DNA of 63,637 bases, the filler included, from an uncultured Methanosarcinales archaeon (GTDB lineage Archaea; Nanobdellota; Nanobdellia; Woesearchaeales; CAYSVS01), in NCBI GenBank assembly GCA_964434475.1. It is 4 parts of 4 records of this genome, joined end to end, with 100 filler letters (N's around TTAATTAATTAA, not from the genome) between each part and the next. Parts side by side here need not be neighbours in the genome. Positions count along the whole stretch, not along the records: positions 50,961 to 63,637 come from CAYSVS010000036.1; 3 more parts are not named here. One strand, written 5' to 3'. Position numbers: made by a program. Within the stretch, counting starts at the first letter, position 1, and the number at the start of each line of letters is the position of its first letter. Positions 51,001-57,000 of the stretch are shown here, piece by piece.

Positions 51001-54000
51001 CACAACTCCAGTTATATTAGATAATTATTATGGATGACAAGATATTATTGGATAAAGATACATTAAAGGCATTGGTTGTTGATACCAGGCTTAATATTCT
51101 AAAACTATTGAGTGATAAACAATACACATTATCTGATATAGCAGAAAAGCTTAATTTTAGCAATTCTACTATTAAGGAGCATCTCGATATACTCTGTAAT
51201 TCTGGATTGATCAAAAAAGAAGAGACAGACAGGAAATGGAAATATTATTCATTGACATTGAAAGGAAAAAGAATAGTCAATCCAAGAGAAGTAAAAGTGT
51301 TGTTTGCGTTTATGGTAAGTTTAATTGCAGCGATAGGTGTTGCGATAAAGTTCACAAGACAATTTCTATCTCCTCAGCCGATAATAGCTATGGAAAAAGC
51401 ATCTGCAACATTGTCAAGAACAGCAGATTTTACTCAGATGCAGCAAAGTATAGATAATCAAATGACTTTGCTAATAATTATGATAGTATTATTTACATTA
51501 AGCGCTTTTTTATTAGGTTTATATATCAAAAAACCATTGATGATAATAAGCAAAGAGGAGAAAAGATGAAAAACAAGATTATTTTTTATCATAATGTTGT
51601 TCATTGTTTCAGGATGTCAGCAAGCGTTTGAACAGCAGACAACAGGACAAGGGACACAGACACAAAGCATAGAAGAAACACATTCAACTGAACAAAAAAC
51701 TCAACAAGACACACAAGACAATTACATAGTAAAGGTTGATATAGCAGAATATGTAGCAAGTTCCAAGTCATTAACACCAACCGAATGTACAGAAAAAGGC
51801 GGAAGAACAGTTAATGTTGTAAATGGAAGCAGATGTGAAAAAGATGAAGAGAACATAGGCGAAGTGAGAGGCTTGGTATCTCCAAATATTTGTTGTATGT
51901 AAAAATAATAATAAACCCTATTTTCTATATTTAGATATTTCTTTACTTCTTTAAATCATTGTATTACAATCTATATTATTTAAAATCAACAAGTATATAA
52001 AGAGAAAAAGTAACCAAAATAAATTGTGTATCGGATGGAAAATAAACCCAATATGTTGTGTTTTCATTCAGAAAAAGTAAAAAACAGAGGGAAAATCAAA
52101 ATGGAAAATGAGGAAGTGTATAAACAAAAAATAAATTCTATGTTTCAATTCAACAGCAAGATATACAAAAAGGTTCCTAATGAACTTATAAATAATTACA
52201 AAGAACTTCTTCTTATGCTGATAAACATGCAGAAAAATAAAGAATTAGAAGTACATCCTCAAAACCAATACCTGGGCGGAAATGATCTCGCAACAAATAT
52301 ATACAAAAAAAAATATTTTCTGAAAGATATAGATGCCGAACTTATAGAAACAAGACCTGAACAGAGTTTCGCAAGAATTGCAGCTTTTGTAGCTGCTGTA
52401 GAACCTGATAAACAAAAACAGAAGCAATATGCAATAAGATTCTATAATGCATTATATAAAGGCCATTTTATACCTGGAGGAAGAGTAATTGCAGGAGCAG
52501 GCGATCTGTTCAGAGTAAAGACTTTATCCAATTGTTTTGTTACTCTAATAGGAAATGACAGCATAGAAGGAATATTTGATGCTGCTAAAGAATGCGCAAG
52601 GACATATTCCTACGGAGGAGGTATAGGAGTAGATATCTCTAACTTAAGACCAAGGGACAGCATAGTACACAATGCAGCAGACAGATCAACAGGAGCTGTT
52701 AGTTTTATGCAGCTTTATTCAATGACAACAGGGTTGATAGGGCAAAGCGGAAGAAGAGGAGCGTTAATGATAACATTGGATGTAAAACATCCCGATGTAT
52801 ATCATTTCATGGATGTAAAAAAAGAGGATGACTGGGTTACAAAACATATTGCAGACCAATGCGAATGGAGCGGAGCTTTTGATAAAAGTCAAATAGATCT
52901 AATCAGGCAAAAAGTAAGGGAAAATACCCAAGTGAGATTTGCAAACATCTCATTAAAAGTTACTGACGAATTTATGAAGGCTGTTGAAGAACAAAAAGAA
53001 TACAACAATAAGATCTTGATATATGATAAAAAAGCAAATACAGAAGAAAAGATAGAATATGGACATTATTCTTATGAAATACCTAACAAAAACATAGAAG
53101 ATTATGAACTGTTGCAAACTTTTGATAACATAGAACAACTTAATCAATATCTGGCCAGCAACAATGTGCAGGCAATATCAAAACAAGAGCTTGATTCTGA
53201 GGAAAAAAGGGATAAATACGGAGATTATATTGTAAATGCAAGAGACAAAACATTAGCGATTAAATACAGCGGAGATTATATGCTTTATTTTAAATCTGAA
53301 CAAACAGGAGAGATTAAAAATTTAGTTAAAGCAAAAAGTATTTGGGATAAGTTTGTCGCCGGTAATTACAAGACAGCGGAACCAGGTTTGATATTTTGGA
53401 GCACCATGACAAAATACAGCCCTTCTAATTATATAGGCAAGCCTATAGCCAGTACAAATCCTTGTGGCGAAGTTCCATTAGAAGATGGAGGAGCCTGCAA
53501 TTTAACATCTTTAAACCTCTCAAGGGTTGTCAAGAACAGTTTTGATGAAAATTCAGAGGTAGACTGGAATCTTGTAAAAGATACGATAAGGCTAATTGTC
53601 AGATTCCTTGATAATGTAATAAGCTGGAACGAATACCTCAACCCTTTAGAAAAACAAAAACAAGCTGCAAAAAATACAAGAAGGATAGGGTTAGGATATA
53701 TGGGTATTGCAGATATGCTCAACCAACTAGGAATAGGATACGACAGCGATCAAGGAATCAAGACTATGGATATATTAGCAAAAACAATATCAAACACAGC
53801 TTATGATGAAAGTGCTAATCTGGCAACAGAAAAAGGCAAAAGTCCAGTATGGGATTATGATCAGTACAAAAAAGGAGCATATTTTAAAGAAAGATTAAGT
53901 GAAGAAACAAAACAAAAAATCGCAGATAAAGGCTTAAGAAATATTGCGATACTTTCAATAGCTCCGACTGGAACAATCTCAAATATAGTTTTAAGCTATA

Positions 54001-57000
54001 AGAATACAGATAAAAACTATATTGGCGTAAGTTCAGGCATTGAACCTATATTCGGATTGTTCTACACAAGAAGAACAGAAACAGTAGGTCAAAGCTTCTA
54101 TAAAGTATTCCATAGCACAGTGCAAGCATATATAGACCAAAAAGGATTGAATGAACAATGCCAGGAAGCTGAAAAAGAAGAAGAGCTAAAAGGCATCTTG
54201 CCAGAACATTTTTTCAGGACTGCACACCATATATCTCCTGAAAAAAGAGTTACAGTACAAGGAACATGCCAAAAATATATAGATCACTCAATATCAAGCA
54301 CATGCAACCTACCAGAAGATGTTGAACCAGAAGTAATATCTGATGTATATCTCAAAGCATGGAAAGCAGGATTAAAAGGTGTGACAATATACAGGGATGG
54401 TTCAAGATTTGCTATACTCACTGTTAAAAGCAAAGAAAATGAATTTCAAAAGCATAAAAATAGCATAGTTAATGTGTGCTTAGAAGGAGGAGAAAGTGCA
54501 GAACTTAGAGGATCAAGCCTGATACATGATAATCAAGGAAGACTGACTACAGTATATCATGCGACTAAAAACAATATACCTATAACATCATGCAGATTAG
54601 ACGGAACAAGCATATTAAAAATATCGGAAGGGGCATTAGAACTCAAAAAAGATAAAGAAGAGATTGAACAACAAAATAAAATTACAGAAAACACTGAAGA
54701 AATATTTGACTCTAATCTTAAAAAATGTCCTGTGTGCGAGAAGGTTACATTAAAAGTAGAAAGCGGATGTTCCTCATGCATAAATCCTGAATGCGGATTC
54801 AGCAAGTGCGATCATTAAGATATTATTAAAAATAAAATGGGAAAAAATGAACTTGGCCTTGTGCATGTATATACTGGCAATGGAAAAGGAAAAACAACAA
54901 CAGCCATAGGATTAGCTTTAAGAGCTATTGGCCAGGGCTTTAGGGCTTATGTTATACAGTTTCTGAAAGGAGGGCAGTATACAGGCGAATATGTAGCATT
55001 GAAACAATTCCTGCCTAATGCTGAGATAGTGCAATACGGCAAAGGTTGCATAAAAGAAAGCAAACAGTTAAAGATAGATAATTTTGGGGAAGTTAAATGC
55101 TGGAAAGGAGACTGGAAAAAGGACGAGATTAGCTGCGGAGACTGCAGATACTGTTTTGTAAATGATAATGAACAAGAACAATTCACAAAAGATGCTTTTG
55201 CTCATGCAAAAAGAATACTCACTAACAATGATTTTGACATTGTTATTCTAGATGAACTCAATTGCGCTATCCATTCCGGCATGATCGAATTAGATAAAGC
55301 ATTGGAGCTGATAAAAAACAAAAATTCAAAAACAGAACTTATAATCACAGGAAGAGATGCACATCCTAAGATAATTGAAGCAGCGGATCTTGTTAGTGAA
55401 ATAAATGAAGTAAAACATTATTATAAAAAAGGCATTCTCGCAAGAAGAGGAATTGAGTATTGATTTTTTCTTTTTGATAATAAAGGCAATAAAATTTATA
55501 TATATGGCACACATATACAATATATATGAAAAAAGCGTTTATAAGTTTCGGTTCTAATAAAGGAGACAGAAGCAAGAATGTAGCTAAAGCTCTCGATATA
55601 TTAAGAAAACATTTTCTTATTGCAGATGTCAGCTCATTCTATAATTCAGAACCGGTTTATACAAATCAAACAAGAAATTTCTTAACAGGAGTTATAAAAA
55701 TAGCGACAAAACTGGAACCTAAGCAATTGCACGAACAACTTCAGATGATCGAAAGACAACTAGGCAGGATCAATATTGCAAGAGATGAAGATAAAATAAT
55801 AGATCTTGATCTTATATATTATGAAAAAAAAGCAATAGAGCAGCCTCCCATAGTTATTCCACACCATAAAGCACACAAAAGAAGATATGTTCTGCAGGCG
55901 ATGAACGATATTGACCCTGAATATTTACACCCTAAATTAAAGAAAACGCAAAAACAACTGCTTGATGAACTAGGATGCGATAAAAAAGTAGAAAATATTT
56001 CTGATTAATATTCTAGATCAGGATATAAAGGAAACTTCTCGCAAAGCTCAAGTATTCTCTGTTTTGTTTTTTGTATCATTTCTTCATTCTTGTAATCTTT
56101 AAGCAGATTAGACATCAAAATTCCGATTTGCTTCATCTCCTTATCCTTCATGCCCCTTGTTGTCAATGCAGGTGTGCCAATCCTTATCCCGCTCGGATTA
56201 AAAGGAGTTCTAGGATCAAAAGGAATCATATTTTTATTGGTATAGATTCCTGCTTCATCCAATACTTGCTCTGCTTCTTTGCCAGTGCATTCTAAGTTTG
56301 TTAGATCTATCAAAATTAAATGGTTATCTGTGCCATTGCTTACTAACTTTATACCATTTTCCATCAATGTTTCTGCTAATACCTTTGCATTTGCAATCGC
56401 TTGTTTTTGGTATTCTTTGAAATCAGGCTGCAATGCTTCATTGAATGCAACAGCTTTTGCTGCAATTATATGATCCAATGGTCCGCCTTGCATACCTGGA
56501 AAAACAGAAAAATCTATTTTTTGTGCCAAGTTTTTTTTACCTTCTGGATCTAATCTATCTTCTTTCTTGGATAATATGATCGCGCCTCTTGGTCCGCGCA
56601 ATGTTTTGTGGGTAGTGGTTGTGACAATATCGCAATAAGGTATAGGATCAGGATAAAGTTTTGCTGCAACCAATCCTGCAACATGAGCAATGTCTGCCAT
56701 TAAATAAGCATTGACTTTATCAGCTATCTCTCTAAAACGTTTGAAATCTAATTTTCCAGGATATGCTGAGAATCCTGCAAGTATCAACTTAGGCTTATGC
56801 TCTAAAGCAAGCTTTTCAACTTCATCCATGTCAATCATTCCTGTTTCTTTGTTAACTCCGTAAGGAATTATATTATATAGCTTGCCTGAAAAATTTACAG
56901 GTGAACCATGAGTTAAATGACCTCCATGTGCAAGATTCATGCCTAAAATAGTATCTCCGGTTTTAAGCACTGCAAAATATGCTGCCATGTTTGCACTGCT

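Follow-up and report, generated by a model that had tools for sequence, protein, structure and literature searches.

The closest described system is the bacterial NrdR regulon of Streptomyces coelicolor (nrdRJ and nrdAB) and Escherichia coli (nrdAB, nrdHIEF and nrdDG), which employs the same Zn-ribbon plus ATP-cone protein as found here. Bacterial NrdR requires two boxes; C4 of the box is critical in vitro, while a 9-bp C-G gap is tolerated in one box (PMC13584703). DNA-reading roles have been described for NrdR residues such as D15 and R17 in the accessible part of PMC9110341, where a survey of NrdR boxes is given without an archaeal result. The survey in PMC13584703 used bacterial genomes. 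A 2014 review states that archaea lack the NrdR box (PMC4009431), and NrdR is described as having no orthologues there in a 2025 preprint (10.1101/2025.03.28.645925); elsewhere, NrdR is reported in 22% of archaeal genomes (PMC13584703) and a few archaeal ribonucleotide reductases (RNRs) are considered NrdR-controlled (PMC12051234). Haloarchaeal nrdR-nrdAB operons, in which NrdR adjoins the RNR genes, are tabulated as genes and not operators in the accessible part of PMC3019208 (Table 3). Archaeal NrdR genes are already in print, and no analysis of an archaeal NrdR operator was found in the literature searched.

Bacterial-type regulators acting on archaeal promoters are presented as the general rule in the accessible part of PMC2995911. 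There, LrpA of Pyrococcus furiosus and MDR1 of Archaeoglobus fulgidus are described as repressing by blocking polymerase downstream of the TATA box, and Lrs14 as occluding TBP/TFB.

The window is a 63,637-nucleotide stretch from an uncultured archaeon of the order Woesearchaeales, in which contig C36 (CAYSVS010000036.1) occupies position 50961 onward. On its forward strand, 52101..54818 encodes NrdJ, a 905-residue adenosylcobalamin-dependent class II RNR (TIGR02504 profile search, 524.5 bits against a cut-off of 399.95) with Pfam domains PF00317 and PF02867; the ATP-cone PF03477 was not found in this protein by Pfam. A GTG at 52026 was ruled out as start codon by the N-termini of orthologues and the ATG at 52101 was taken instead, hence both boxes described below are non-coding. 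A purine run at 52087..52091 (forward strand, read by eye), 9 nt 5' of this ATG, may serve as a Shine-Dalgarno-like element. A cobO/cobA-type adenosyltransferase gene (54837..55463, forward strand; TIGR00708, 168.2 bits against 167.75) begins 18 nt after the nrdJ stop codon; of 20 orthologous loci, 4 share this adjacency, among them the three from the genus. It is probably co-transcribed with nrdJ, and its product makes the NrdJ cofactor. A larger thymidylate operon under the same boxes was rejected because glyA, folA and thyA lie on the opposite strand, and Rfam gave no match within 51500-55600 up to E = 1.

The nrdJ promoter appears to be of archaeal type, as the earlier note had claimed. 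A BRE/TATA motif learned from the genome's own upstream regions, where 215 of 549 genes have it 30–32 nt ahead of their start codon, has its best match within 51902-52100 at a BRE-like element (51986..51993, forward strand) followed by a TATA box (51994..52001, forward strand). The score is moderate (7.2 bits), the BRE half is nearly invariant across the three genus genomes, and the TATA position is shared with both genus relatives (G155 and G032). From the 30–32 nt peak between TATA and start, we infer an nrdJ start site at 52024-52026. Matches to a sigma-70 promoter occur at chance level (3 vs 2.2 ± 1.6).

Two NrdR boxes 32 bp apart had been reported downstream of this TATA box, and their coordinates hold: box 1 occupies 52014..52029 and box 2 52046..52061 (both forward strand), corresponding to approximately -11 to +5 and +22 to +37 relative to the predicted start site, the latter within the 5' leader. 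Box 2 (C36:1086) retains all six key bases (C4, A6, A8, T9, T11 and G13) and scores 20.2 bits. Box 1 keeps four of the six with its right half intact (8.2 bits); C4 and T9 are the two key mismatches that had already been noted. The nearest C in box 1 lies too far from G13 to make up the 9-bp variant that is tolerated and, by inspection, the pair does not fit the search pattern of PMC13584703. While C4 and G13 are both present in box 2, C4 of box 1 is missing in all three genus members, hence the site combines one full box with a half box and is not a canonical operator. Spacing is 32 bp in G155 and 31 bp in G032. The last seven bases of box 1 are invariant in the three genomes (G000, G155 and G032) while the linker diverges, and box 2 is kept at 21.4 bits (G155) and 20.1 bits (G032).

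Scored with a matrix derived from relatives outside this genus (136 boxes), the nrdJ pair reaches 28.4 bits and is the top pair of the 1.5 Mb genome. The runner-up at 31/32 bp scores 12.6 bits and the best pairs of five control genomes 10.6–15.5 bits. By key count alone a 10/12 pair is not rare, with 25 of 1197 genes here reaching 10, and pairs with at least 11/12 keys precede 2 of the 1197. The two top single boxes of the genome are C28:10624 (22.5 bits) and C36:1086. Because a single box in the reversed genome already reaches 20.0 bits, the significance of a lone box lies in its position only. The earlier statement that these two are the only intergenic perfect boxes stands for the full consensus but not for the six key bases, for which 48 matches are not wholly within ORFs as delimited by a crude ORF caller.

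The NrdR gene itself (C28:10166-10600) exceeds the TIGR00244 cut-off (160.5 vs 124.65 bits), and its product carries both a Zn-ribbon and an ATP-cone (PF22811 and PF03477, each over its gathering score). The protein is ~40% identical to that of E. coli. Alignment to the Streptomyces and E. coli proteins shows that the four Zn cysteines, D15, R17 and the four-arginine run are kept. Of the nucleotide-site residues, K50, E56 and K62 are retained, R51 is replaced by K, Q72 by E, K69 by L and Y128 by H. In a set of 131 archaeal NrdRs, R17 and K50 never vary; the first two replacements are common there and the last two rare (3/131 each), which marks this NrdR as divergent. As the earlier note had it, one full box lies upstream of nrdR, at C28:10624; it starts 7–8 bp after the first TATA base. 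No partner was found for it, the best candidate scoring -3.3 bits at 43 bp; this candidate lies in the coding start and was rejected as the half site that nrdR start codons tend to produce. The box before nrdR is absent in G032. Not every RNR operon of the genome is preceded by boxes: the second class II RNR (C14) has none (best -1.8 bits), in agreement with the earlier observation, nor was one found in G032 or G155. In a tree of 109 rows built by a quick method, the C28 NrdR pairs with that of G032 (support 99) on a long branch. Of its 105 inner branches 61 are open, hence no donor or single transfer is claimed for the archaeal NrdR.

NrdR had been reported from 62 of 81 genomes of the order, and a wider set gives a similar picture (150 of 201 over cut-off). 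The recurrence of box pairs before relatives' nrdR genes is likewise borne out: of 93 nrdR upstream regions, 59 contain a strict box, 43 a pair with at least 11/12 keys and 28 a strict pair. Among 103 genomes with NrdR, 52 carry such an 11/12-key pair ahead of an nrdR or RNR gene, compared to 1 of the 33 in which NrdR was not found, kin among them not being independent. The contrast is modest when RNR genes are taken by themselves (8/52 vs 1/44), and for orthologues of this nrdJ it is 7/13 vs 1/6. The strict pair pattern occurs at 115 places in 87 of 201 genomes, compared to 25 places in the reversed control. The published search pattern was not used for the main contrast: in AT-rich DNA it is insufficiently selective, matching 57 of 1197 background genes. 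In other orders of the class, pairs are found at 22 of 33 nrdR genes. In two genomes (G052 and G124; 95% and 90% complete) perfect pairs stand upstream of RNR genes and NrdR was not found; they were identified by pattern search and hence left out of the unbiased count. Recurrent strict pairs inside coding sequence labelled RNA-polymerase-like from its translation (G043, G042 and G048) were set aside as coding coincidences. The recurrence of regulator, DNA-reading residues, operator, spacing and placement across the order and class, together with the rarity of pairs where NrdR was not found, supports the proposal that a bacterial repressor controls an archaeal-type promoter, although the nrdJ locus is a weak example of the regulon.

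Across 86 operators, box 1 clusters at 14–17, 22–27 and 32–38 bp after TATA, approximately one helical turn apart, an arrangement that is new here. Of 69 operators for which the best TATA was sought within ~110 bp on either side, 61 have it 8–50 bp upstream of box 1. The nrdJ box 1 is off-phase at 20 bp, the 18–21 bp interval holding a single one of the 86. An alternative TATA at 51978 would place box 1 in phase (36 bp), but its score is -0.3 bits and neither G155 nor G032 retains it. Base-composition compatibility was rejected as the origin of the clusters: in a weak test on one genome, no profile peaks at 16–17 or 24–27, although the promoter profile of this genome does favour distances of 30–35 bp.

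We consider it probable, with good confidence, that the nrdJ pair is an NrdR operator overlapping the start site of a TATA promoter of archaeal type, and a member of a regulon spread through the order and class. On dATP build-up, NrdR loaded with ATP and dATP would form the DNA-binding tetramer known from bacteria, gripping box 2 fully and box 1 via its right half, covering approximately -11 to +37 and bending the DNA. TBP and TFB could still fit on the BRE/TATA, whose end is 12 bp short of box 1, but recruitment of RNA polymerase or DNA opening would be blocked, as shown for LrpA and MDR1. A fall in dATP would release the repressor and allow transcription of nrdJ, probably with cobO. As NrdJ lacks a detectable ATP-cone, transcription would be its main overall control.

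It is very improbable that the pair arose by chance in AT-rich sequence, or that bacterial DNA was misassigned to an archaeal bin. It is true that this 33% GC genome holds 415 six-key matches and that a reversed genome can match a single box, but the pair score lies far above the controls. C36 furthermore encodes archaeal TFS and signal peptidase (both over cut-off), the same promoter occurs in both genus relatives, and the C28 NrdR groups with that of G032. Harder to dismiss, though still unlikely, is a regulon that is real in the order and decaying in this genus, with box 2 and the nrdR box as relics or weak single sites and the box 1 half acting as an initiator. The genus-wide loss of C4, the off-phase box 1, the missing nrdR box of G032 and the long NrdR branch all fit such decay, as does the predicted start site falling on the conserved box 1 half. 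However, seven invariant bases that match the right half of a box, at 31–32 bp from its partner, exceed the two-base need of an initiator; box 2 stays at 20–21 bits in all three genomes despite the diverged linker, and NrdR keeps its DNA-reading residues along with K50, E56 and K62 of the nucleotide site.

Slightly more plausible, yet also unlikely, is that NrdR does bind at this site while acting on a different step, either by excluding TFB/TBP or as a roadblock after initiation. The nrdR box would, from its position, touch TBP/TFB, and 25 of the 86 operators have box 1 starting downstream of the predicted start site. In contrast, the nrdJ locus and 61 of the 86 begin box 1 at or before that site, and no box 1 starts less than 11 bp after the first TATA base, in a set limited to 8–50 bp.

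In relatives, NrdR is also found fused to a class III RNR, with pairs upstream, which raises the further question of whether a reductase could repress the gene that encodes it. We put forward, as a tentative proposal rated at somewhat below even, a full archaeal NrdR regulon helically phased to TATA in which, in several lineages, such NrdR ribbon-class III RNR fusions bind their own promoter. If true, the phased repressor would meet the TBP-TFB-polymerase complex on one DNA face, and the fusion's single ATP-cone would both sense dATP and shut off its own gene. If the operator reading is right, uncultured small-genome archaea gain a defined regulon, and one repressor-operator code would work unchanged on both sigma-type and TBP/TFB-type machines.

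Compared to the bacterial regulon, the archaeal one shares the 16-bp palindrome, the six key bases and the 31–32 bp spacing, as well as targets (RNR genes and nrdR) and the placement of boxes over the start site. It differs in having BRE/TATA in place of -35/-10 elements, in the half site that forms box 1 here, and in the clustering of operators at ~10-bp steps from TATA. LrpA, MDR1 and Lrs14 are helix-turn-helix proteins. As with LrpA and MDR1, insofar as the available portion of that account extends, a bacterial-type repressor would meet an archaeal basal machine from an operator that lies between the TATA box and the first transcribed stretch; unlike them, NrdR is nucleotide-sensing and would set a pair of Zn-ribbons on two boxes separated by three turns. 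Two six-key boxes were also found in 5 of 6 haloarchaeal nrdR operons, with box 1 starting 18–19 bp after a TATA-like run. These operons differ in their class I RNR, a box spacing of 29–30 bp and a separate NrdR branch (support 99). Because cultured haloarchaea carry the same arrangement, it is directly testable.

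The class II ribonucleotide reductase (RNR) gene nrdJ occupies 52101-54818 on contig C36, which begins at position 50961 of the window of chained contigs, and matches TIGR02504 with 524.5 bits (cut-off 399.95); a family search of its product detected no ATP-cone. GTG 52026 was ruled out as the start by orthologue N-termini, which favour ATG 52101. C36 is an archaeal contig, its TFS and archaeal signal peptidase scoring over their cut-offs. An adenosyltransferase gene begins 18 nt past nrdJ, an adjacency seen in 4 of 20 orthologous loci, among them all three of the genus. Adjoining nrdJ, folK (+) converges on a thyA-folA-glyA cluster (-) at 55526-58671, forming a compact thymidylate cycle in which a matrix scan placed none of the genome's top-scoring NrdR boxes. 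At 51030-51902, directly before the nrdJ promoter region, are encoded an ArsR-like helix-turn-helix protein whose C-terminal segments are hydrophobic and, after it, a small cysteine-bearing protein, probably secreted and without NCBIfam match. Short repeats at 47768-48282 and 50800-51010 recur near contig ends and N spacers, and may represent either the end of an insertion element or an assembly repeat.

A BRE/TATA motif was built from the upstream regions of 13 tRNA genes as seed, then refined with 424 intergenic regions, the two test promoters being excluded. The TATA lies 30-32 nt ahead of the start codon in 215 of the 549 genes with a strong motif match in the studied genome (G000); these read as leaderless, and many genes of this genome look so, which would put the start site ~30-32 nt past the first TATA base. 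The nrdJ promoter appears to be of archaeal type, with its first TATA base at 51994 (7.2 bits, the best within 51902-52100). Its predicted start site, 52024-52026, falls inside NrdR box 1, which would put box 2 between about +22 and +37.

The two boxes that the earlier note described 32 bp apart before nrdJ are present at 52014-52029 (box 1) and 52046-52061 (box 2). Of the six key bases taken from PMC13584703, box 2 retains all six and box 1 four, confirming the two mismatches already reported. The resulting 10/12 keys are not in themselves rare, since 25 of 1197 genes reach at least 10 (11 in two genes, 12 in none). Scored with a matrix of 136 relatives' boxes (own genus and the doubtful genome G193 excluded), the nrdJ pair is top-ranked in the genome at 28.4 bits, compared to 12.6 for the runner-up at 31/32 bp spacing and 10.6-15.5 for the best pairs of control genomes (one reversed, four shuffled). 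The two top single boxes lie upstream of nrdR (22.5 bits) and at box 2 (20.2), the controls' best reaching 16.6-20.0.

Bacterial NrdR, with ATP and dATP, is described as forming a tetramer on two boxes three turns apart and bending the DNA (PMC9110341). By analogy, a tetramer at nrdJ would cover about -11 to +37, leaving BRE/TATA free, and would block polymerase as LrpA and MDR1 are reported to do (PMC2995911). It is likely that NrdR represses at the nrdJ locus, the blocked transcription step being less certain than NrdR binding. The main rival explanation is decay of the site within this genus. All three genus members lack C4 in box 1; this base is reported as critical in vitro, where two boxes are needed (PMC13584703), and the half of box 1 that is conserved falls at the predicted initiator position. 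G155 and G032, the other two members of the genus, conserve BRE/TATA, box 2 and the right half of box 1, with a diverged linker. The nrdJ site combines one full box with one half box and so departs from canonical operator form; with that qualification, the earlier proposal of bacterial-type NrdR control of an archaeal-type promoter is supported as a predicted regulon.

The NrdR encoded on contig C28 does score over its cut-off (160.5 vs 124.65 bits), as previously noted, and can be aligned to solved NrdRs across 145/147 residues. With residue roles following PMC9110341, it retains four cysteines, D15, R17, the arginine run, K50, E56 and K62, and is altered at K69 and Y128. The gene is first in a short operon, followed after 7 nt by a dCMP deaminase gene (L001:993-1484, minus strand), and its single box may also govern dUMP supply via this enzyme. 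That box, likewise recovered, is the genome's best and starts 7-8 bp downstream of the TATA's first base; a matrix scan of G000 found no partner, and the box is missing in G032. The second class II RNR (~584 aa; L043, C14:17896-19560, minus strand) has a strong TATA (13.6 bits) and no ATP-cone in the stretch scanned; the earlier statement that it lacks an upstream box holds in G000 and also in G032 and G155. The genus retains one boxed and one unboxed NrdJ.

At order level, 161 of 201 genomes gave an NrdR match, 150 of them over cut-off; at phylum level the figures are 243 of 301 and 221, the rows listed all being of the same order or class. Of the 201 order genomes, 87 carry the strict pair pattern, at 115 places in total, compared with 25 for the reversed pattern; genomes without an NrdR match hold 7 places (6/40 genomes). 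For an unbiased count, loci not picked by the pattern were scored for a pair with at least 11/12 keys before an nrdR or RNR gene, dropping upstream regions <150 bp and any gene that immediately follows another target gene. A pair was present in 52/103 NrdR-bearing genomes (34 strict), in 4/6 genomes with fused NrdR, and in 1/33 (0 strict) where NrdR was not found, a group that includes G078 and G131 with very weak matches. RNR genes alone gave 8/52 with NrdR vs 1/44 without; nrdR promoters, often leading nrdR-RNR operons, supply most of the signal, and automatic start calls miss some pairs (e.g. G003). Hand-checked nrdJ orthologues have a pair in 7/13 NrdR-bearing genomes (6 strict) vs 1/6 others (0 strict). 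The correlation is not clean, since two relatives, G052 and G124 (95% and 90% complete), carry perfect pairs upstream of RNR genes, NrdR being found in neither. Further samples gave pairs at 22/33 nrdR genes from other orders of the class, 4/14 more from the order, 5/13 in titled archaeal records and 6/67 in bacteria (0 strict). All tallies are samples containing kin, hence not independent, and include unpublished genomes (G112, G121, G132, G183, G354, G355; the G112 and G132 loci fall within the unbiased count), on which no single claim depends. Another perfect pair in G052 (L108:1501, on C39) precedes a membrane-protein gene located behind thioredoxin reductase and thioredoxin-like genes. 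The protein resembles an FTR1 iron permease, and the gene may belong to the regulon as an additional member that serves an iron-dependent RNR.

In 61/69 operators, the best TATA in a search of ~110 bp to each side is located upstream of box 1 at a distance of 8-50 bp. Among 86 operators of 63 families, taken at a minimum TATA score of 5 and a distance of 8-50, distances cluster at 14-17 bp (17 operators), 22-27 (36) and 32-38 (22), with troughs at 18-21 (one) and 28-31 (four); nrdJ, at 20 bp, sits in a trough. With each family represented by a single operator, a period of 10.25 bp fits best (5-95%: 10.25-10.75), a fit equalled by 1/5000 single-peaked and 3/5000 uniform null draws. When the second set of 27 operators is taken by itself the clustering recurs, with a better fit at 8.5-9 bp than at 10.5; the clusters are therefore firmer than a helical reading.

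Weak NrdR matches of the order search are largely single ORFs in which an NrdR Zn-ribbon and one ATP-cone are joined to NrdD (755-760 aa in G098, G129 and G188), while G066 and G090 fuse a whole NrdR and second cone to NrdD (861-869 aa). In-frame fusions of an NrdR ribbon or whole NrdR with class III RNR are located at L154:1426-3690, L149:1420-3690, L160:1411-3690, L155:1414-4020 and L359:240-2822 (minus strand) and L353:538-3033 (plus strand). The 1157-aa fused frame at L360:249-3719 (G122, minus strand) exceeds its kin by ~400 aa, and its NrdD match is split in two pieces; the extra length is possibly an intein. Zn-ribbon, cone and NrdD families co-occur in 46 among 120 longer NrdR relatives listed, and all organism-labelled fusions among those listed are archaeal (source labels Aenigmatarchaeota, Asgard/Heimdallarchaeota, Bathyarchaeia, Nanoarchaeia and Woesearchaeota). 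Strict pairs precede 5/6 fused genes of the unbiased set and 8/9 of a further set, in which two were first seen by the pattern, five pairs lie 260-290 bp upstream and one frame is interrupted. Of 14 metagenome fusion loci tried, 11 were scored: 9 have pairs of 10-12 keys (three are near-duplicates) and 2 are without ribbon. Such NrdR-NrdD fusions merit their own study; none was found in the portions of the literature checked.

In print, NrdR is placed in 22% of archaeal genomes by PMC13584703, whose box survey covers bacterial genomes. PMC9110341 calls NrdR 'rare in archaea', and its 935 box sequences, drawn from GTDB, might include archaeal entries. PMC12051234 mentions 'a few archaeal RNRs' under NrdR control, with no archaeal data behind the statement in its available text, and the available parts of PMC9669993 and PMC11226230 leave NrdR-RNR fusions unmentioned. 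Searches for NrdR with Thermoplasma returned no literature, and the best 20 matches for Woesearchaeota, DPANN or halophiles with NrdR were without NrdR. Excerpts on NrdR, archaea and RNR fusions likewise showed no archaeal operator analysis or NrdR-RNR fusion, absence from print being unproven.

Haloarchaeal nrdR operons have been reported (PMC3019208). In six plasmid nrdR-nrdAB operons, box 1 lies 18-19 bp after a TATA-like run and a second six-key box follows 29-30 bp onward in 5/6, the pairs (L319-L324) being about 76-77 and 47 nt before nrdR. These operons represent one or two independent cases, as their promoters are plainly homologous, and their NrdRs form a separate branch (99) of a tree poorly resolved elsewhere. 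The arrangement is testable in cultured hosts. Its 29-30 bp spacing is shorter than the 31-32 bp of bacterial NrdR boxes. The G000 NrdR is a member of the family, and its predicted system works like the bacterial regulon.
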